Source of the DNA: Candidatus Eiseniibacteriota bacterium
GTDB taxonomy: Bacteria; Joyebacterota; Joyebacteria; Joyebacterales; Joyebacteraceae
DNA: 12,077 bases
Direction of reading: 5' to 3'
Assembly: GCA_043819135.1 (NCBI GenBank)
Contig: JBDRFG010000076.1
Span: 1-12,077, forward strand
Made by a program: the position numbers and the translations under genes. Positions 1,430-12,063 of the stretch are shown piece after piece. Positions within the stretch are counted from its first letter, which is position 1. Each line of letters begins with the position of its first letter. The notes under the pieces are model-generated. The model ran no database searches. It saw only the letters and a list, made by a program, of their open reading frames with translations, and was not told where the DNA came from.

Positions 1430-1457
1430 CAGGTCACTAACGCATGTTAGGGGCGGT
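1430..1457 (+). repeat. isolated copy of the array site (caggtcaCTAA-cgcatg-TTAGgggcggt)
   Basis: CTAA-N6-TTAG core; GGTCACTAA arm is the reverse complement of the arm at 7935-7943; opposite orientation to the array but co-directional with the local + genes. Confidence 0.65.
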
Positions 1458-1618: not shown

Positions 1619-1900
1619 ATGTCGCTAACGCCAATCAGTGGAGAACCCGGAGCCTTCTGGGACAACGTGACGAAGCAGAAAATCCAGATCGAAACGCTGA
1701 TTCGAATCGAAGTCGTCTCGTCCAAGCGCATCACGTCGAAGAAGAAGATGGCGAAGCTCGCAACCGACCGGCTGACGCTCGCCGGCGAGACGGGGTGGAG
1801 GCTTCCGGGGCAATGGACCGAATCCCTCCGTGCGGACAATCTCTGGCACTACGACGTCGTGGCGAAGAAGCCGCTCCTCGATGACGACCATTCTCTCTGA
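1619..1900 (+). CDS. hypothetical protein, 93 aa; N-terminus paralogous to the next ORF
   Basis: First ORF after the promoter-like region; LTPISGEPGAFWDNVTKQKI motif. Confidence 0.7.
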   Translation: MSLTPISGEPGAFWDNVTKQKIQIETLIRIEVVSSKRITSKKKMAKLATDRLTLAGETGWRLPGQWTESLRADNLWHYDVVAKKPLLDDDHSL

Positions 1901-2015: not shown

Positions 2016-2458
2016 AACTGAAGACCTTGCTCTGGCTCCTGGGCGCCGCGGGCGGCCTCAACCTCATCGCAGACCTGTGGTTCCGCACGAGCGTCAGCGC
2101 GGCCACGAGCGCGCCCTGGTGGGTCTGGGCGCCCGTCGTCGGAACCATCGTCCTCGTCCTCGTGACGGTCGGCGGCTCGGGCCTGCTCAAGCGCCTCCAG
2201 TCCCCCCCGCAGGACGAGAGCGAGGGCGAATGCGTTGACCGGGAAGAGCCCTGGACACCCCCCATCGCTGTGAAATTCTACCACAATTCCCCAACACCCC
2301 AGGAGGGCATCGAGGCAGCCGGAATCGACCGACTCCGCAGGGAGACGGGGCACCCGCTCTGGAGGATGGCCTGCGGCCCAACCACTGCGCTGGAGACAAA
2401 CGGCCACTGGGTACACACCGTCAGCTTCTTCCGGGTGGAGGACACGAGGCCGCTATGA
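2012..2458 (+). CDS. putative membrane protein, 148 aa
   Basis: AAGGAG RBS; two hydrophobic segments (LLWLLGAAGGLNLIADLWF; WWVWAPVVGTIVLVLVTVGG); ATGA coupling to the next gene. Confidence 0.7.
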   Translation: MKLKTLLWLLGAAGGLNLIADLWFRTSVSAATSAPWWVWAPVVGTIVLVLVTVGGSGLLKRLQSPPQDESEGECVDREEPWTPPIAVKFYHNSPTPQEGIEAAGIDRLRRETGHPLWRMACGPTTALETNGHWVHTVSFFRVEDTRPL

Positions 2459-3033
2459 ACCATGATTGCGATTACTTCAACCGCTACGGGTCCTTCGACA
2501 CCTACGGTTTCTTCGACAATGAGAGACACGACGTCTTCCGAGAGTTGGCCGACAAGGACATCGACAGGACCAACCTCAGCGCTCCGAACAAGCTCTGCGA
2601 AGGCGAGGAGATGACGGCCAGGTTGTGGTACGCGCGGTGTTCTGAGCCGCTTGTTCCGGTCGTCCGACATCACATCGCCAACGCTTGGGCCGAGTTCACG
2701 GTTTACGGGAAACTCGTTGCCAACGGTCCTCTCCTCCGGATCGTCCACAGCCCGTGCTCGTTTCCGGCCATGGAACTCACGGCTCGACACGATCTCAATC
2801 TCCGAGTCGTCTGCAAGAAAGCGACCCCGGGGCTCCACGAGTACCTCGTACGGCAGCACGCGCGACCCGGCGAAGCTGCCTTGCTCTTGGCGCAGGCTGC
2901 GACGTTTCTGAAGGCCGGCGTCACCGATGACGAAACCCGCGGCCCGCTGGCCGGCTTCCGGTCGCTCGATATCCCCCCCCTTCGGATCTGGGTCCACATC
3001 GAAGGCTCAGGGAGCACGGCGGCGACGAAATGA
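2455..3033 (+). CDS. hypothetical protein, 192 aa
   Basis: ATGA overlaps at both ends, GAGG RBS; no family recognised. Confidence 0.7.
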   Translation: MNHDCDYFNRYGSFDTYGFFDNERHDVFRELADKDIDRTNLSAPNKLCEGEEMTARLWYARCSEPLVPVVRHHIANAWAEFTVYGKLVANGPLLRIVHSPCSFPAMELTARHDLNLRVVCKKATPGLHEYLVRQHARPGEAALLLAQAATFLKAGVTDDETRGPLAGFRSLDIPPLRIWVHIEGSGSTAATK

Positions 3034-3887
3034 GCGACTCCATCGACCAATTCGCCGAGCACCTCGGGGCCTTCCGACGTCCCAGGACCGTCGAAGCCTA
3101 CAGATCCGCAGCCAAGAAGTTCGAGGAGTGGGTCGTGGGCAAGCCCATGACACCACGGTCCCTGGAGGACTTCGCGGCATTCCAGCTCACCACGAAGAAG
3201 CTCTCCGGGGCCACCGTCCACCTCCTCGTCGTGGGCGTGAAGGCGTACCTCGGCTGGCGCCGGCGCCAGGGAGAGGACCTCCCGGACTTCGACAGCCCCC
3301 CCCTCCCGAGGTTCCGGAAGCGGGTACTTCCCGTGCTGCGCGGCGAGGATCTCAAGTCGTACTACCGAGCGTGCGATAACATGCCCGAACCAGTGCGGAC
3401 GCTCTCTCTTCTCCTCCCCCTAACCGGATTTAGGGTGTCGGAAGCGTGCAATATCCAGGTGCGCGACCTGAAGTGGGCCGGAAACAGGTTCCGCATCACC
3501 GTACGGGACAGCAAGGGGGACGATCGCGTCGTTCCGGTGCCCCGACGCGCGACTCCGCTCGTTCGCAGGTACCTGAAGGAGACATGGGGCGTGCTCCCCA
3601 AACTCGGCGGCGCGCCGGAGGCCCAGCAGTTCCTCTTCCCGTCCCGGCTCGGGACCGCCTACCAACCCAAGGTCGTCCGGGAGTGGATGGCGAAGATCCG
3701 AAAGAGAATCGGCGTCACCCACTTGACTCCGCACGTTCTGAGGCACACCTTCGGAACACGGCTGGAGGAGGCTGGCGTCCCGACTTCGGCGATTGCACGA
3801 CTCATGGGGCACCGGAGCGTGCAGACGACGTCCGGATACACCCACGGCTCGATCGACTCCCTCGGCGACGACGTCGACAAGATCTGA
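3030..3887 (+). CDS. tyrosine recombinase/integrase, XerC/XerD-like, 285 aa
   Basis: Complete catalytic set: R135 (TGFRVSE), K162, H235-x-x-R238 (TPHVLRHTF), H261 (LMGH), Y270; N-terminal core-binding segment (RTVEAY); no room for the IntI-specific insertion or a lambda-type arm-binding domain. Confidence 0.95.
   Translation: MSDSIDQFAEHLGAFRRPRTVEAYRSAAKKFEEWVVGKPMTPRSLEDFAAFQLTTKKLSGATVHLLVVGVKAYLGWRRRQGEDLPDFDSPPLPRFRKRVLPVLRGEDLKSYYRACDNMPEPVRTLSLLLPLTGFRVSEACNIQVRDLKWAGNRFRITVRDSKGDDRVVPVPRRATPLVRRYLKETWGVLPKLGGAPEAQQFLFPSRLGTAYQPKVVREWMAKIRKRIGVTHLTPHVLRHTFGTRLEEAGVPTSAIARLMGHRSVQTTSGYTHGSIDSLGDDVDKI
3413..3440. repeat. array-like site inside the recombinase gene (cctccccCTAA-ccggat-TTAGggtgtcg)
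   Basis: CTAA 3420-3423, 6-bp spacer, TTAG 3430-3433; a perfect half-site GTGCGATAA lies at 3371-3379. Confidence 0.45.
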
Positions 3888-3906
3888 CCACCACCAAGGA
3901 GACCCC

Positions 3907-5501
3907 ATGCCAGGCGACATCGCGAATCTGCTCAGCGAATCCGACCAGCAGCAGCCCCCCCCCCAGAGAACGGCCCTGACGACGCCCTGGAGCCCGCAGA
4001 AGACCCGTTCGAGGCCACGGCCACCCCCCCCGACCCCATCCCGAAGAAGCCGAAGGCCCCGGCGAAGAAGACCAAGAGGTACTTCCGGAGCCAGCTCGAC
4101 AACTGGTTCCCCACGGCGCACCGGATCAAGTTCTGGAAGCGGGACGAGCAGGGGCAGCTTCACTCGATCGCTCGCAACTACTACCCGAGGGACCTGGAGC
4201 GTACGCACGACGTCGAGGACTTCGTGGCGACGTACCTCGTCCCGACGTACCTGGCCGGCGAGTACGAGGTCGCGGTCATCGACAAGGACGGGAAGATCAG
4301 CGACCGGCAGACGGTCTCCGTCCTGGGCGTCGCGGCGACTGCAGCGGCCGAGGGCGGGGACACGAGGATGGCCAACATCGTTGACCGCCTGTTCGACAAG
4401 ATCGGGGACCTCGAGAAGCGCCTCGACGACCCGTCACGCATCCCGCCCCCGCCGAAGACGGCCAAGGAGCAACTCGAGGAGGCCGAGGCCCTCAAGAAGA
4501 CCCTTGGGGGGGGCGGTGACCCCATGTTCACGATGATCATGAATCAGCAAGCCGAGGACCGACGTCTGCTGATGGAGTTCATGCGCGAGCAGCGCGGGGG
4601 TGGGGCCAAGTCCGACCTCGATGAGCTTCGCCGGGAACTCCGCGAACTCCGGCCCGCCCCGGGGCCGGCGCTGCCGCCCCCCGACACGCTTCCCCAGGGG
4701 CCGGACATCGGGGAGATCATCAGGGACGTCCTCGCGGCCACGAGGCCGGTCCAGCCTGCCACCCCGCCCGACACCGACCGCATGGGTCCGAAGGACTGGA
4801 TCGACCTGATCAGAGAGGCGAAGGACATCATCTCCCCCGCCGGCGCGTCGACCGAGGTTTCATCGCTCCGCACGCAACTCGAAGGACTCCGCACGGAGCA
4901 GATGAAGGACATCCGGGACGAGCTCCGAGAGATGAAGACGGGGGGCGGCCCGACAAAGGGCATCGACGACGCCCTGAGCCTGGTCGACAAGATCACGACC
5001 AAGTTCGGAGGCGGCGGCGCGACGACTGGGGACCGGATCCTTCAGGGGATCGAGATGTTCACGGATCCGGACCGGCTCGAAGCCATGGGCGGGGCCATCG
5101 GGCGCACCGCAGCCGCCTTCCGCGAAGGGGCCGCCGGCTCGCCAAAGCCCCCCCGCGACGAGAACAAGAAGCTCCGCTACCCCGCGGGGTTCTCAACGCA
5201 CGTCAAGGCCATCATCGACAACGTCGACGACGACACCGCCCTCGTCACGGCGACCATGCGCGCGGTGGAGTTCCTCGGGAAGTTCACCTCCTGGCAGGGG
5301 TACGTGCTCCAGATGGTCAAGACGTGCCAGGAGAACAACCGCGACGAGGCCTTGGCGTGGGCCAAGGCGTTCATCCAGGGCCTGCGCGGGGCCGGGAAGA
5401 TCAGCCAGGACGTGGAGACCCGGGCCATCGCGGCCTTCGAGGACCACGCCGACGAAATCATGACGAAGGTCCGCGGCGCAACCCAGCCGAGCGAGGAGTA
5501 G
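3907..5501 (+). CDS. large helical/coiled-coil, Pro-rich hypothetical protein (~531 aa), frameshifted at C10 tract 3955-3964
   Basis: AAGGAG + ATG 3907 gives MPGDIANLLSESDQQQPPP; after the tract, the frame of track ORF 4224..5501 is open and protein-like (PENGPDDALEPAEDPF...KRYFRSQLDNWFPTAHRIKFWKRDE...DFVATYLVP); C11 or C8 joins the two. Confidence 0.7.
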
Positions 5502-5844: not shown

Positions 5845-6513
5845 ATGAACGTCGGAGACGTTGTCATCGCAATCGGGTCGATGGTCGCAGGGTTCAGAGC
5901 CCTGAGGTCCAGCCTTGGTGGTATCGACTCCGTGGGCCGGGTCAGCGACGTTCGCCAGGCGGTGTCGCGCTCCAGGCGGGCTGGCACAAAGCCGAAGGCC
6001 ACGCCGTACAACGTCTACACGATCGGGGATCGCGTCTCCCACATCAGGAAGGTGATGCTCGACGGGAGGGCCGACCCAGAGGTTCGGATTCTGACCGGAA
6101 AGCTGCTCTCGAAGAAGTGCGGGAAGAAGTGGTGCATCGAGGAGCGTGACAGCTGGGGAGAGGTCAAGGCCATCTTCAAGTTGGTGAAGGAAAACGTCCG
6201 CTACACCTCCGACCCCGTGGACATCGACCTCTTCCAGCACCCGATGCGAATCCTGGAGAGCGGGGCCGGGGACTGCGACTGCATGACGATCATCCTCGGG
6301 TCGATGTTGATGTCCGTCGGCTACAGCGTGAAGATGAGGGTGATCCGGGGCCGGGGAGCGCGCGACTGGAACCACATCTACCTGCTGGTCGGGCTTCCGC
6401 GTGGAGCGCCGAAGCAGTGGGTTCCGCTGGACGCGAGCGTGCCCGATGCCCCTCCCGGATGGCAGCCTGGGCGAACCCAGATCGCGGCGTATCGGGATTT
6501 TAGGGTCCTTTAG
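5845..6513 (+). CDS. transglutaminase-like (Cys-His-Asp) putative cysteine protease, 222 aa
   Basis: VKENVRYTSDP...P..ILESGAGDCDC (catalytic Cys), WNHIY (His), WVPLDAS (Asp): transglutaminase-core motif order. Confidence 0.85.
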   Translation: MNVGDVVIAIGSMVAGFRALRSSLGGIDSVGRVSDVRQAVSRSRRAGTKPKATPYNVYTIGDRVSHIRKVMLDGRADPEVRILTGKLLSKKCGKKWCIEERDSWGEVKAIFKLVKENVRYTSDPVDIDLFQHPMRILESGAGDCDCMTIILGSMLMSVGYSVKMRVIRGRGARDWNHIYLLVGLPRGAPKQWVPLDASVPDAPPGWQPGRTQIAAYRDFRVL

Positions 6514-7895: not shown

Positions 7896-7924
7896 GTGTC
7901 ACTAACTCCTTTCCAGAAGTGGTT

Positions 7925-8329
7925 CTAATCACTGTTAGTGACCCGACGGGGGCGCCGGCGGTTTTTGAGCCGTTCTCGCATGAAGCGGTCGAGCTCGGCC
8001 TGCGTGAACATCAGGGTCCCTCGAGCCCCCCGCCCGATTGGATGGAGTTCGCCGCGTCGTACTGTCTGGCGCACACCCGACGTCGAGTTGTAGCGCAAGT
8101 ACGCGGCGGCCTCGTCGCACGAGAGGTAGCACGACTTGGCGGCCTCGTTCGCCCTGTACCGTGCTCGCGCGATCCGCTCTCGTTCCCGTATCCGGCCCTC
8201 GCGCCGGGCCCCCCTGGTCGCCGTCTCCCCGGTCGCCCGGTCCAGGCACACGTAGCACCGAGCCGCCGCGACCTCCTCTTCCGAAAGCAGCGACGCCCCG
8301 CAGTTTCCGCATGTGCTGTCCTTGGGCAT
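7925..8329 (-). CDS. excisionase/MerR-type (HTH_17-like) DNA-binding protein with N-terminal Zn finger, 134 aa
   Basis: YLSCDEAAAYLRYNSTSGVRQTVRRGELHP...LMFTQAELDRFM fits the Xis-like winged HTH pattern; CGNC...CYVC; flanked by array sites. Confidence 0.8.
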   Translation of the reverse strand: MPKDSTCGNCGASLLSEEEVAAARCYVCLDRATGETATRGARREGRIRERERIARARYRANEAAKSCYLSCDEAAAYLRYNSTSGVRQTVRRGELHPIGRGARGTLMFTQAELDRFMRERLKNRRRPRRVTNSD

Positions 8330-8345
8330 GTGCCTCTAACTCCTA

Positions 8346-8561
8346 TTAGTGTCCGTTCGCCCATGCGGTCGTCACGGCATCGAAATCGTACCCGGAGGCG
8401 AGCAACTCTAGGAGCTCACTCCGGGTGACTCGAAGATTCCACAGCCCTCGTTCGGTCGTCCAGATCGACCACGCCCGCCCCTCCTTGAGGTCTCTATAGG
8501 TGGGCACGTCGCCGGGAGCCCGGTTGATCAGCCGGTCCAGGACCGTTTGTTTGTTATTCAT
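8346..8561 (-). CDS. hypothetical protein, 71 aa
   Basis: GAGGT RBS; fills the interval between two sites; TAA stop lies in a site arm. Confidence 0.7.
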   Translation of the reverse strand: MNNKQTVLDRLINRAPGDVPTYRDLKEGRAWSIWTTERGLWNLRVTRSELLELLASGYDFDAVTTAWANGH

Positions 8562-8577
8562 GGGTTACCTCGTTCCT

Positions 8578-8802
8578 CTAATCTCGGTTATCGCACTCGG
8601 CAACCATCCGAAGGCCGCGGAATACCTCGACGAGACCCCGTGCGATGTCTTCGTCCTCTTCTGCAACCTCACGGCAGATCGCAATCACCCTTGAGAGCGT
8701 GTCCCAGTCGCGCACACGCAGGATGGGCTGCTCCGTCCGGAGCTCGTACACACCCGCGTGGGGCATTCTCGCCCGGACGATAACTTCGTTGGCTTCGTGC
8801 AT
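8578..8802 (-). CDS. hypothetical protein, 74 aa
   Basis: AAGGAG RBS; ends CDNRD* with TAG in a site arm. Confidence 0.7.
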   Translation of the reverse strand: MHEANEVIVRARMPHAGVYELRTEQPILRVRDWDTLSRVIAICREVAEEDEDIARGLVEVFRGLRMVAECDNRD

Positions 8803-8853
8803 CGGTCGCTAACTCCTTGTCCGTGGTGGTCCTAACGCTCGTTATCGCACCGT

Positions 8854-9039
8854 CTACTGACTGCTTACGGCGTCGAAAATGGAGTCGAAGCCGTCGTCGA
8901 GCTTCCATCTGATCTCGTTCAGTTCTTCGGCGACGCGACCGAGGTTGTTGGCGATGCACACCAGGGGGTCGTGGTGGTCCTCCTTCACGGCCATCTCCCC
9001 CCCACATCGGCTGCAGACGTACTCCTGTGTGTTATCCAT
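8854..9039 (-). CDS. hypothetical protein, 61 aa (MDNTQEYVCSRC...)
   Basis: Start moved from 9327 to ATG 9039 with GGAGG RBS just after the site at 9049-9076; CSRC and HHDPLVC. Confidence 0.7.
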   Translation of the reverse strand: MDNTQEYVCSRCGGEMAVKEDHHDPLVCIANNLGRVAEELNEIRWKLDDGFDSIFDAVSSQ

Positions 9040-9065
9040 GGGTTCCTCCGTGGTTCTAACAGTCA

Positions 9066-9413
9066 TTAGCGCACCCCCCGTCCGAACGGGTCGTCGGGAT
9101 CGTGCAGCGCTTCCCCATAGCTGTTGACCGTCACCGTCCACTCGTACACCGACTCGCGAGCGACGGCGACGGCGTCCTGCTTCTTGTTCGTCCACGTCCA
9201 GGTCCAGAAACCATCGGACCCGTACTCCTTGGTGTGCCGGAGGCGGATCTTCGATGTCCTGAGTCCCGCACCCTGCGCGTGTGCCCGCGCCCATCGGTCG
9301 ATGGCCCGTAGGACGTCCTCCCGCCACTTGAACGTCTTGGTTCGTTCCTCGCCGCAGAACGAACCGAGCGCGGCTTCGGCCAGCCCCTCGCGTCCATTCC
9401 CAACGGGCGTCAC
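9066..9413 (-). CDS. hypothetical protein, ~115 aa
   Basis: Track ORF 9066..9554 with start moved to GTG 9413 (GTGA overlap with the upstream peptide gene); ends VR* in a site arm. Confidence 0.6.
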   Translation of the reverse strand: MTPVGNGREGLAEAALGSFCGEERTKTFKWREDVLRAIDRWARAHAQGAGLRTSKIRLRHTKEYGSDGFWTWTWTNKKQDAVAVARESVYEWTVTVNSYGEALHDPDDPFGRGVR

Positions 9414-9514
9414 CAGGAGAACGCCCCCAGCGCCGCCGCGATCCCGGCGATCGTGCCGGTTGCCATGATGATCAAAAACAGGATGATCGAGTCGCTGTCG
9501 TCCGAGGGTTCCAT
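9410..9514 (-). CDS. small single-pass membrane peptide, 34 aa (MEPSDDSDSIILFLIIMATGTIAGIAAALGAFSW)
   Basis: Hand-translated, below the track cutoff; AAAGGA RBS, ATG 9514, TGA 9412-9410; one hydrophobic segment. Confidence 0.6.
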   Translation of the reverse strand: MEPSDDSDSIILFLIIMATGTIAGIAAALGAFSW

Positions 9515-9544
9515 CGTCGTTCCTTTCGTGGTTATCCGGTGGTT

Positions 9545-9790
9545 CTAATCGCAATTATCGCACCCGACCAGTTTCGAGAGCTCTTCCTGGGCGATGTTGA
9601 AGTACTCGCAGATCGCGAGTTGGCACCCGTCGCAGACGAGATCCTCGCAGGCAAGCTCCGCTTCGGCATCGGTCTGCTCTGGATGCCGCTTCTCCATGCG
9701 GAGTCCGGTGTGCCCGTCCTCTTCCACGTCTGCGATGAGCGCGATGAAGAAGCACCACTCGTGGGGGCAGGCTCTAATGGTTTTCGTCAT
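9545..9790 (-). CDS. Cys-rich acidic hypothetical protein, 81 aa
   Basis: ATG abuts the upstream site arm (TTAGAGGTAC-ATG); ends CDNCD* in the downstream site. Confidence 0.7.
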   Translation of the reverse strand: MTKTIRACPHEWCFFIALIADVEEDGHTGLRMEKRHPEQTDAEAELACEDLVCDGCQLAICEYFNIAQEELSKLVGCDNCD

Positions 9791-9823
9791 GTACCTCTAA
9801 CAGTCCTTATCGCACGGTCGGCA

Positions 9824-10390
9824 TCAGCCGAGCATGACGGCAACCAGCAAGGCTGTCGCCGCTGCGAGGAGGACGAAGTGCAGCGCGGCGGCACCAGCCC
9901 TGGCCTCCCCGCTGTCGGACGTTGGCTCCTCGTACTCGTACTCCCGCTTGCCTCCGAAGACCCACCAGCCCCCAGCGCGGCTCTTGAGCCGACGGACGCC
10001 CATGCAGGCTCGGCGGTAGGACTTCCACGTCAGCACCCAGAGGACACCGAGAAGCGGTGTACAGATCAGGATCGCGAGAATGTCTTTCGCGACGACCTTC
10101 CAGACGACGAGAGCGACCGTCAGCTTCCCGACATCGGTCTTGGCGAACTCGGCGGTGCGGTCGGTCACCGCCGCGAGCGCGCCGTCAACGGCCTTGCCGA
10201 TCTCGCCCCCGAGGCCGACCCACTCGCCGTACTGCTCAACCTTCGCGGCGAGGTCCCGACGGCCGATCTCGGCCTTCTGCGTCTCCGTGAGCATCGATTC
10301 CGGGACGGAAACGGTCCTGGGTTGGGCTTCCTGGGCGGCGGCCGGCGCGGCGAACGCGACGACGATCGCGGTGATTAGTGTCCTCTTCAT
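9824..10390 (-). CDS. phage-type membrane protein with signal peptide, 188 aa
   Basis: AAGGAGG RBS; signal peptide MKRTLITAIVVAFAAPAAA; further hydrophobic segments; WVGLGGEIGKAV...EFAKTDVGKLTVALVVWK resembles a widespread phage hypothetical family (from memory). Confidence 0.8.
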   Translation of the reverse strand: MKRTLITAIVVAFAAPAAAQEAQPRTVSVPESMLTETQKAEIGRRDLAAKVEQYGEWVGLGGEIGKAVDGALAAVTDRTAEFAKTDVGKLTVALVVWKVVAKDILAILICTPLLGVLWVLTWKSYRRACMGVRRLKSRAGGWWVFGGKREYEYEEPTSDSGEARAGAAALHFVLLAAATALLVAVMLG

Positions 10391-10429
10391 GGGGTCCTCC
10401 TTGTGATTAGACCGTGGTTCTAATGATGG

Positions 10430-10777
10430 TTATCGCACGTCGGGTATCGGCTCGCCGCACCACCAGCACAGCCGGGCTGGCTGCGGCAACATCGGAAGTC
10501 GCATCCCGTCCTGTGGGCGCACGGAGATGCCGTTGTGGTACAGCGCGCGGTGGTAGCCGCAGAAAATCCCCTCGGGGCAACACTCGCAGACGTGGTCGCT
10601 CTCGGAAACACCCGCGCGAACGAGGTTCTCGTCCTGGTCCTGCGTTCTTTCTGGCCGCGCCGTGAAGGCGTTTCCACAGCCGTCCTCCACGTTGACGAAC
10701 CCCTGGTAGTAGAAGCAGAACGGCCTGTCGTCGCGCGACTCCAGACACGGGCAGCCGGTGCAGTTGTTTCGTGGCAT
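10430..10777 (-). CDS. Cys-rich hypothetical protein, 115 aa
   Basis: Fills the interval between two sites; CTGCPC, CECC, CWWC; ends VR* in a site arm; RBS weak. Confidence 0.65.
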   Translation of the reverse strand: MPRNNCTGCPCLESRDDRPFCFYYQGFVNVEDGCGNAFTARPERTQDQDENLVRAGVSESDHVCECCPEGIFCGYHRALYHNGISVRPQDGMRLPMLPQPARLCWWCGEPIPDVR

Positions 10778-10798
10778 CCGAAGTGGTCCTAACGTGGC

Positions 10799-11017
10799 TT
10801 ATCGCACCAGCAGCGCCGCGCGCAGGCCCGCGAGGACCGCCTCCGGGTCCGCGGCCTCGACGATGATGCGGTCGTCTCCGATGCCGACGCGCGCCCACCA
10901 GAGGTTCTCACCCACGAGCCCGCGCTCCTCGGGGGGAACCGTAGCGAAGTCGCGGCCAGCGACGATCGCCTCGACGGCGACGCTGAACTCCTCGGCGGTC
11001 ATCGTTCGTTTTGGCAT
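10799..11017 (-). CDS. hypothetical protein, 72 aa (MPKRTMTAEEFS...)
   Basis: Start moved from 11107 to ATG 11017; GAGGGAG RBS provided by the site arm; ends VR*. Confidence 0.7.
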   Translation of the reverse strand: MPKRTMTAEEFSVAVEAIVAGRDFATVPPEERGLVGENLWWARVGIGDDRIIVEAADPEAVLAGLRAALLVR

Positions 11018-11030
11018 TAGCGTGCTCCCT

Positions 11031-11396
11031 CTAAGCGGTATTAGTGTCCTCAGCGCATTCCCCGCACCGCACGGGGTCGCCCTTCCGTTGCGAGTTCCGT
11101 CGCCCACAAGGACGACAGCACCACGAGCGCCGCGACCCGAAGCGCTCCACGGCGTCGCGCCGGAGCCGCACCTTCACGCCGCACGGACACGAAAATGGGA
11201 GGAGGTCAGTGCGGTACGCGCGCTGCCCTTCGGCCACGGCCTCGCGCTCGAGTCGAACGAGCCTCCTGTCCCTGGATTCCATCGCCCGACACCCCGGCAC
11301 ACTGCAGCGGTGGCCGATCGTCTCGCACGCCGCGTTGAGCACGGCGATGAAGTTGTGCTCGTGGCGTCGGCGCTTCTTGCGTGCGCTAAGTGGCAT
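11031..11396 (-). CDS. basic Cys-rich (Zn-finger-like) hypothetical protein, 121 aa
   Basis: TAATG coupling inside the site at 11379-11406; CSVPGC, CPCG, CCRPC, CGEC; ends DTNTA* in a site. Confidence 0.7.
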   Translation of the reverse strand: MPLSARKKRRRHEHNFIAVLNAACETIGHRCSVPGCRAMESRDRRLVRLEREAVAEGQRAYRTDLLPFSCPCGVKVRLRRDAVERFGSRRSWCCRPCGRRNSQRKGDPVRCGECAEDTNTA

Positions 11397-11521
11397 TAGT
11401 GTCCTCGACGCAGCCGCTTCACCACCCGCATCGCGTGCTCAAGCGCGAGGCCGGCGTAGGCGAGCGGGAGTATGATGGCGAGGAAGGCGGCGCCGAGGAG
11501 GGTTTTAGTGGTGTTTCTCAT
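11396..11521 (-). CDS. small membrane peptide, 41 aa (MRNTTKTLLGAAFLAIILPLAYAGLALEHAMRVVKRLRRGH)
   Basis: Hand-translated, below the track cutoff; ATG follows TTAGAGGCAC, TAA in the next site arm; hydrophobic core and basic tail. Confidence 0.65.
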   Translation of the reverse strand: MRNTTKTLLGAAFLAIILPLAYAGLALEHAMRVVKRLRRGH

Positions 11522-11527
11522 GTGCCT

Positions 11528-11722
11528 CTAACGGTTGTTATCGCCATGTTCCCGTCCCCATGCGTGGCCCGGGTCAGGAACGAACGTGAGCGCCACGACG
11601 TAGGTCTCGCCATCGCCCACGCTGTCCCATTCCTGGGCACGGACGATCCATCCCCCAGGGACGCGCATTCGTGCCGTCGACTCCCCCTCCTCCTTGTTTA
11701 TTTCTTCCCACTCGTCCTTCAT
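11528..11722 (-). CDS. phage-type hypothetical protein, 64 aa (alternative start 11761)
   Basis: GGAGG RBS before ATG 11722; TARMRVPGGWIVR...LTFVPDPGH.W resembles a small phage family (from memory); ends GDNNR* in a site. Confidence 0.7.
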   Translation of the reverse strand: MKDEWEEINKEEGESTARMRVPGGWIVRAQEWDSVGDGETYVVALTFVPDPGHAWGREHGDNNR

Positions 11723-11778
11723 GGCCGATCCTCCGTTTTCGGTGTTATCCGTGGGTTCCATGGTGGTGCTAATTGTGC

Positions 11779-12063
11779 TTATCGCACCGCACGCGGCAGC
11801 AACTTCACGTTCACGACCTTGGGCCAGCAGTCAGGGCACAGAACCGCCGACCGCTGGTTGTTGCGGGACAGGTTACCCCACTCCTTCGGGGGGTTCCACT
11901 GCATCCCGCCCCCGGTCCGGGTGATCTCGGACTCCTCGACGACGTGCTCGACCTTGCAGACGCTGCAGCGGTAGACCGGGACATCGACGGTCCTCGTCGT
12001 CGTTTCGTGTTTGCAGATGTGTTTGCAGATCGGGAACTCGCGCTTCAGCCTAATGGTCTCCAT
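11779..12063 (-). CDS. Zn-ribbon-like hypothetical protein, 94 aa
   Basis: AAGGAGG RBS at the window end; CKHICKH, CSVC, CPDC; ends VR* in a site arm. Confidence 0.75.
   Translation of the reverse strand: METIRLKREFPICKHICKHETTTRTVDVPVYRCSVCKVEHVVEESEITRTGGGMQWNPPKEWGNLSRNNQRSAVLCPDCWPKVVNVKLLPRAVR

Follow-up and report, generated by a model that had tools for sequence, protein, structure and literature searches.

A simple tyrosine recombinase from a conserved viral gene block and its possible role at an integron-like array of TAA-N6-TTA sites

Simple tyrosine recombinases (YRs) are composed of a core-binding (CB) and a catalytic (CAT) domain only, with no arm-binding domain, as defined in PMC8138268. 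The dif sites of the Xer subgroup have an 11-6-11 geometry according to PMC8371274. Integron integrases (IntI) are defined by an IntI-specific additional domain around patch III, and their attC sites need a folded single strand (10.1101/2022.02.06.479319). In Acinetobacter, gene modules lie between dif-like cores (pdif, served by host XerC/XerD), mostly in opposite orientations as described in PMC7399989, where a path of one-strand exchange followed by replication is also discussed for Xer and IntI1. Among tyrosine recombinases, the Tn1549-type Y-transposases set a precedent for exchange that needs no homology (PMC6900584). Many oriented sites also occur in systems of repression: the stoperators of L5 are described as more than twenty asymmetric, repressor-bound 13-mers in short intergenic spaces, following the direction of transcription and lacking a free centre (PMC9283540).

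The window analysed here, i.e. the whole stretch of 12,077 nucleotides, corresponds to the entire contig C76, a viral contig within the 2.69-Mb bacterial MAG G000. Three viral contigs were assembled (C76, 12.1 kb; C116, 21.9 kb; C51, 4.9 kb; about 39 kb in total). C116, on which lysis and virion-type genes lie together with four further array-type sites, shares a 141-bp overlap with C51. Between C76 and C116 there is no overlap, yet the two have common leaders behind their sites and carry genes that neighbour each other in relatives, and both were therefore treated as one virus. No link between the viral contigs and the host contigs of the MAG was found, so that the MAG need not be the virus's host. 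The rightward genes of the window considered below are:

3030 to 3887, forward strand: simple tyrosine recombinase, core-binding plus catalytic domain, 285 aa (ORF translation, profile searches).
3907 to 5501, forward strand: large conserved protein, following the recombinase in relatives (open frame 3888 to 5501; to begin at 3907, translation would have to shift frame in the C run at 3955 to 3964).
5845 to 6513, forward strand: transglutaminase-like protein (PF01841), third gene of the conserved viral block (Pfam, synteny).

The ATG at 3907, with its Shine-Dalgarno sequence, lies in another frame than the long conserved ORF that stops at 5501; an assembly error or a slippery site may be hidden in the run of ten C at 3955–3964. 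The gene content of C116 includes SLT, a glucosaminidase, an M15-like peptidase and an adenine methyltransferase, and four of its ORFs open with a common MLGELAL/MLAEAAL-type leader. On contig C126 (1–804), an integron integrase is cut by the contig end (TIGR02249 255.6 bits over 212 positions).

A sequence-only reading made beforehand had listed the intact residues R135, K162, H235, R238, H261 and Y270 in a protein of 285 aa with an interval of 73 residues from the catalytic Lys to the His, and the ORF translation agreed in each of these points; the K162-to-H235 interval is 67 residues in the MAG's own XerC and 72 in its XerD. In Pfam, PF00589 was matched at 109 bits by residues 102–272, and residues 5–80 were PF02899-like, below the cut-off. 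The recombinase thus has the catalytic R-K-H-R-H/W-Y set and PF00589 of the tyrosine recombinase superfamily, and its CB and CAT domains, with no arm-binding domain, make it a simple YR in the sense of PMC8138268. Every NCBIfam Xer cut-off was missed (archaeal XerA 123.8, cut-off 220; XerC 101.7, cut-off 335; XerD 97.1, cut-off 330), and the MAG's own XerC and XerD passed theirs. The best PDB matches (E 4e-22 and 6e-19) had archaeal XerA (4a8e, 5hxy) as nearest, then XerD (1a0p); Tn1549-type Int (6en0, E 4e-8) was matched by the C-terminal 50 residues only. The integron integrase model TIGR02249 scored 55.4 against a cut-off of 265, with residues 224–272 as the best stretch, and no IntI-specific domain was detected by this score or by the K-to-H spacing relative to host XerC/D, which bears out the earlier statement that the enzyme is not an IntI. 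A quick tree was built from 16 XerC/D-like rows and the viral family, leaving out XerA, XerS and XerH. Here the query grouped with P0002 and P0121 (support 99) inside the viral family, and a branch of support 99 parted the viral side, including the query, from the 16 XerC/D-like rows, so that no grouping with chromosomal Xer proteins was seen among these rows. By the sequence features tested, the recombinase is not a member of IntI or of XerC/D/A/S. Of the HMM search and phylogeny that had been proposed as a check, the former upheld the exclusion from IntI, with scores that also fell below the Xer cut-offs, and in the latter the protein stood apart from the XerC/D-like rows. The description as Xer-like holds for the two-domain plan, the RKHRH-Y set, the K-to-H spacing and the sites with Xer geometry (6-bp spacer); unlike the Xer subgroup, the query is a viral core gene on the viral side of the tree, and its virus has many sites with different spacers where the Xer subgroup has one dif.

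A search of 1.84 billion representatives returned 32 proteins at E ≤ 1e-30, the closest homologs being P0002 (51%), P0121 (42–44%), P0147 and P0126 on contigs of 0.6–6.2 kb. Locus searches of viral contigs with a single protein or an alignment gave mostly generic integrases, and a degenerate DNA pattern for the family motif gave 14 viral, 75 metagenome and 8 genome loci, 42 of these 97 scoring at least 197 bits on the family profile at 24–36% identity to the query. Five relatives are complete records of 54–102 kb with direct terminal repeats, and in one of them (G046) the family profile had a single match. At the family loci the recombinase comes first in a conserved block, followed by the large protein, the transglutaminase and a single-jelly-roll capsid candidate. 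Counted over 41 non-duplicate loci (L219, a duplicate of L173, and 20 sister-group loci being left out), all 21 loci that extend 3.5 kb or more downstream had a transglutaminase homolog, and of the 16 that extend at least 8 kb downstream, 15 encoded a homolog of the 222-aa C116 protein. The sister group comprises shorter viral recombinases (support 100; L171, L172, L174, L177–L181 and others), and its 20 loci had none of the block genes, the transglutaminase and capsid genes included, near the recombinase.

The 222-aa protein was modelled as a jelly roll (pLDDT 80, pTM 0.73), with the SPV1 capsid as best match (Foldseek E 5.8e-4; Z 7.3, rmsd 4.1, 141 aligned) and the HHIV-2 and P23-77 capsid proteins as further matches, although matches at Z values below 8 may reflect no more than a common fold. 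It resembles the single-jelly-roll viruses (SPV1, HHIV-2/HCIV-1/SH1, P23-77) in this model; it differs in that none of 50,697 annotated phage records matched it by sequence and that the genomes measure 54–102 kb. Upstream of the recombinase, the start of ORF 1619 resembles the first 24 residues of this capsid candidate (67% identical; window 1619–1690), a second look-alike of its start lies at about 1908–1960, and residues 22–95 of ORF 2455–3033 match its middle (window about 2518–2740); these capsid-like pieces are, as judged from their similarity, a decayed or scrambled capsid paralog.

In the Kofleriaceae MAG G001, the virus core block lies between host-like genes on the 238-kb contig C1 (about 145–215 kb) and contains the only recombinase match on C1; along 17 kb it shares 94% identity with C48, another contig of this MAG. 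No att direct repeat was found around this apparent provirus, which is probably a provirus of the virus group. The group consists of tailless-looking bacterial viruses known only from metagenomes, and an abstract-level literature search, supplements excluded, found no published description of it. From the family, its block and its circular relatives, all of which were observed, we infer that the gene encodes the core integrase/resolvase in a group of bacterial viruses that have circular genomes and a single-jelly-roll capsid candidate; the family's ordinary job is most likely to integrate or resolve the viral genome. The label "stand-alone" stands only in part: no second tyrosine recombinase was found on the three assembled viral contigs (about 39 kb; C76, C116, C51), but the gene sits in a conserved viral operon.

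The window holds 15 TAA-N6-TTA cores against 0.07 expected, and none of 200 shuffles exceeded 2. Most of them form one array, which with its counterpart on C116 is annotated as follows:

7918 to 11789, reverse strand: array of 13 same-orientation sites bounding 12 units of 142–623 bp (motif count); cores at 7926, 8337, 8579, 8833, 9057, 9546, 9798, 10421, 10790, 11032, 11387, 11529 and 11770.
7925 to 8329, reverse strand: HTH_17 / excisionase-or-regulator-like protein, last array unit (PF12728 30 bits, cut-off 27; phrog_66).
C116, 18805 to 20450: second array of four direct sites among virion and lysis genes (L013), units of 493–644 bp.

The cores of the window array span 7926–11781, the first of them 4.04 kb past the end of the recombinase gene, as the earlier figure of about 4 kb had it. 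Left arms are like GGTGCGATAA and right arms like TTAGRACCAC, separated by a 6-bp spacer, with no other spacing from 1 to 11 present. Across the 13 sites on C76 and the four on C116, TAA and TTAG are invariant (17/17), whereas all 17 spacers differ, with a mean of 1.7 of 6 matches. Over the outer 8 positions, left arms agree mutually at 4.5 and right arms at 4.8, while a left arm compared with a right arm gives 2.5 matches (chance 2.2); the array arms are unequal outside (C/A)TAA, except that site 11387 carries a left-type arm on the right. The orientation is the same in 13/13 window-array sites and in 4/4 C116 sites. In 10/17 sites, half of a second core follows 23 bp downstream (TAA at +14/15 in six, TTA at +23 in four); a degenerate copy was likewise seen 23 bp beyond C116 site 19449.

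The units mostly contain one short ORF each, and 11 of the 13 upstream ORFs stop inside the site, six on the left TAA and five on the right TAG, in frame through the spacer. Leaders behind the sites are common to unrelated ORFs on the two contigs (63 bp at 83%, 45 bp at 89%). Sites 11387 and C116:20439 overlap start codons and coding sequence, and the last three leftward genes have no site. For 16 leftward-strand ORFs (13 of them in or bordering the array) and the four C116 array ORFs, no homologs were found in 1.84 Mb of relative DNA. Two adjacent C116 array units encode paralogous membrane-anchored proteins that are 34–38% identical. A reading of the sites as sigma-70 promoters was rejected, as the scan gave 1 candidate against 1.0 expected.

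Units that follow one another in the same orientation with one short ORF each, stop codons located in the sites, and accessory content give the array the gene-cassette arrangement of integrons. Of ten array sites folded, nine folded no better than shuffles, and only site 7926 formed a short hairpin (z −3.06); single-strand hairpin folding as in attC was thus not found among them. The base before TTA is A in eight, G in seven and C in two of the 17 sites, with no invariant GTT. In contrast to integrons, the query also lacks the IntI-specific domain, and the setting is viral.

The dif of the MAG's bacterial family was determined as GTCGCATAA-N6-TT(A/C)TGTAAAC, the XerD-arm form being TTATG in 20/30 family relatives and TTCTG in 8/8 genus genomes. 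The MAG's own dif is C170:13206 (L342), conserved in 8/8 genus members, in favour of which the candidates C100:12028, C135:2899 and C146:17333 were dropped. Compared over the outer 8 positions, array and dif arms share 1.1–2.5 matches (chance 2.2); all 17 sites carry TTAG in place of the XerD-arm core, and the XerD arm is matched at chance level, a comparison that refers to the MAG's bacterial family only, as the virus's real host may have other arms. Judged by these arms, the host XerC/D of the MAG would be a poor fit as the enzyme for the array sites. The family's XerC/XerD dif sites also share the inner CATAA on both arms, and the array arms differ outside the core; the earlier argument from the common inner TAA to a single-subunit system consequently fails. 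Like the Acinetobacter dif modules, the array has gene modules between dif-like cores; unlike them, it has no XerD arm, its sites are direct and not mostly of opposite orientation, and a recombinase of its own lies nearby. By the features tested, the array is not pdif; if functional, it would work like an integron or dif-module array.

Two window cores, at 1438 and in-gene at 3421, had been left out of the earlier array finding. The features at and near the recombinase operon are:

1430 to 1457, forward strand: array-type site upstream of the recombinase operon (core 1438–1449; motif count, arm match).
1406 to 1477, no strand: half-site cluster around the 1438 site, left-arm-like at 1406–1414 and 1456–1465 (sequence, folding).
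1569 to 1611, no strand: 13-bp inverted repeat enclosing a TTGACA hexamer, operator/promoter candidate (read from sequence; not called by the sigma-70 scan).
3413 to 3440, reverse strand: array-type site inside the recombinase gene (core 3421–3432; motif count, synonymous resampling).

The left arm of the 1438 site matches that of array site 7926 at 10 of 11 positions in an orientation opposite to the array; the site stands 180 bp ahead of the recombinase operon among further half-sites, and the 1406–1477 cluster folds better than shuffles (z −2.95). The inverted repeat at 1569–1611 sits in the window's only AT-rich gap, ahead of the rightward operon. The in-gene site overlaps the codons just before and including catalytic R135, which include rare codons, and one of its arms matches an array right arm at 9 of 11. 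On synonymous resampling, P was 0.0066 for the 12-bp core and 0.0004 for the 14-bp form CTAA-N6-TTAG, and across 19 viral genes one in-gene core was seen against 0.037 expected; none of 33 relatives has an in-gene site. A tie of the motif to the recombinase's operon is supported by the arm matches of the two extra sites, which show, as far as DNA letters go, one binding specificity covering array and operon. The operon and in-gene sites would fit self-regulation or an in-gene att site, and would equally fit a repressor with many operators, like the L5 stoperators. A recombination-type site within an integrase gene recalls the suicidal SSV-type integrases (PMC8371274, PMC7253208). Those, in the descriptions available archaea-only, carry PF16795 where the query has PF00589; moreover, no split copy of the recombinase gene was found in G000, and the query's relatives have no in-gene site.

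The co-occurrence of enzyme homologs and arrays was examined at homologs of 24–36% identity, the three closest (42–51%) lying outside this comparison; 21 of the 41 non-duplicate loci were at least 10 kb, with 438 kb in all. Neither a TAA-N6-TTA array nor another enriched spaced palindrome was found in any of the 42 family loci (window, p about 1e-29) and no TAA-N6-TTA array in any of five complete family genomes, whose TAA-N6-TTA copies numbered 1, 2, 5, 1 and 1 against 5, 6, 6, 20 and 4 in the reversed control. The co-occurrence predicted by the sequence-only reading was accordingly not observed at this identity. A search along almost the entire length of four complete genomes for spaced palindromes or dyads of any kind gave no array, the strongest dyad being a GCC-GCC repeat, and no palindrome was common to the recombinase neighbourhoods of 33 relatives. 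The array pattern had no match in viral contigs, and a looser pattern gave 29 single matches there, none with an array, recombinase or capsid gene. The site pattern was found neither in 30 relatives of the MAG, nor among the genomes searched from 401 of G001's phylum, nor in five genomes or records behind family loci. No published description of such a viral array was found in an abstract-level literature search, supplements excluded. On the genomes compared, the array is a trait of the query virus lineage, and distant homologs therefore cannot tie it to the enzyme. Because the relatives' loci and complete genomes are without arrays, the enzyme is not a dedicated array enzyme by ancestry, as had been proposed, and is instead a conserved core gene of its virus group.

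A role of the enzyme in the array is plausible. That the viral enzyme acts on the array sites in this lineage, as one protein performing homology-independent cassette exchange, has in our estimate somewhat less than an even chance. The enzyme would recognise the TAA-N6-TTA sites, a single protein serving both unequal arms, and would cut at the edges of the 6-bp spacer, with strand exchange proceeding without spacer homology as in Tn916/Tn1549-type Y-transposases; with these it would share the exchange over a variable crossover region (PMC6900584), while only the query's C-terminal 50 residues match and it has no arm-binding domain. Small circles (right arm, leader, ORF and left arm) would be inserted at, or excised from, existing sites, by which integron-like accessory-gene arrays would be built at two places of the viral genome. 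One new spacer per insertion would leave all spacers different, the invariant TAA or TTAG would supply a stop codon whichever the neighbour, and orientation would be set by the unequal arms or by selection; one strand exchange followed by replication is an alternative path. Through the operon-front and in-gene sites, the enzyme may limit its own expression, or they may be the genome's att/res site. Classical exchange between homologous sites would duplicate spacers and none is duplicated, so that, if the sites recombine, exchange would have to tolerate mismatched spacers. The units, with stop codons in the sites at their boundaries and common leaders before unrelated ORFs, look like insertion products.

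Several observations suggest the viral enzyme: the three assembled viral contigs encode no other tyrosine recombinase, the sites have Xer-type geometry, the motif recurs at the enzyme's operon and in its gene with arms matching the array at 10 and 9 of 11, site 11387 has a left-type right arm, and the array arms are unlike the MAG's dif beyond the core. The cassette anatomy, the array ORFs without homologs in relative DNA, and the G001 relative lying among host-like genes with the family recombinase as sole match point the same way. Against it stand the relatives without arrays (0/42 loci, 0/5 genomes) and without the in-gene site (0/33), the gene's conserved place in a virion-assembly block and not at an array, the asymmetric arms, which fit two proteins as well as one, a spacer diversity unlike the products of canonical Xer/Cre exchange, and the two sites (11387; C116:20439) that overlap start codons and coding sequence. 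As about 39 kb of a genome type of 54–102 kb is assembled, another recombinase or regulator may also be missing. That shortfall, together with an array reaching within 300 bp of the contig end, would suit arrays built by another recombinase on the unassembled virus part or a helper element; this is improbable, given the single family-profile match in G046 and an in-gene site that points to the query enzyme.

The sites may instead serve a dimeric viral regulator, e.g. the HTH_17 protein at 7925–8329 or an unassembled repressor, as operators or stoperator-like roadblocks, with the recombinase only integrating or resolving the genome, unconnected with the sites. A dimeric DNA-binding protein would suit a dyad with a free 6-bp centre, there are further sites ahead of the core operon and within a gene, the spacers show no homology, and relatives keep the recombinase without arrays; like the L5 stoperators, the array sites are many, lie in short intergenic gaps and all follow the transcription direction (PMC9283540). 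Those stoperators, however, are described as asymmetric 13-mers without a free centre (PMC9283540), and a site at every boundary of 142–623-bp units with stop codons within it, degenerate second cores 23 bp downstream, leaders common to unrelated ORFs on two contigs, and three last leftward genes without a site sit poorly with operators, so that we rate this account as rather unlikely, if a serious contender. Host XerC/XerD acting on the sites in a dif-module-like manner, with the viral recombinase as bystander, would be compatible with the TAA-N6-TTA core, which is the same as in dif, with a MAG encoding XerC and XerD above cut-off, and with asymmetric arms suiting two proteins of a real host whose arms may be other. 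All 17 sites, however, have TTAG where dif has TT(A/C)TG, the XerD arm is matched at chance level, and the XerD arm is probably conserved beyond the MAG's bacterial family. The array sites are also all direct, where Acinetobacter dif modules are described as mostly opposite (PMC7399989), and an action of host Xer is considered quite improbable. For a host integron integrase working on attC- or attI-like sites, the truncated IntI on C126 and the short hairpin of site 7926 (z −3.06) can be cited; as attC needs a folded single strand (10.1101/2022.02.06.479319), nine of ten sites fold no better than shuffles and the invariant GTT is missing, this is very improbable indeed.

In its full form, the proposal that the viral enzyme serves the array would mean that a bacterial virus turned its core integrase/resolvase into an integron-like engine with 28-bp double-stranded sites, free 6-bp spacers, two loci and a control or att site in its own gene, which we put forward only tentatively. 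In that form, a single simple enzyme of Xer size, with neither an IntI domain nor folded attC sites, would capture accessory genes and reorder them. If the link fails, the array stays an unexplained 19-site element; even then, the gene is the marker of a conserved recombinase-transglutaminase-capsid block in a virus group that has no sequence match among annotated phage records. If the link is true, a single viral lineage would have drawn a housekeeping-type recombinase into a cassette system that does without the IntI domain. The passage from Xer-like enzymes to integrons would then have a model open to testing, and a small homology-tolerant recombinase of possible use would be at hand.
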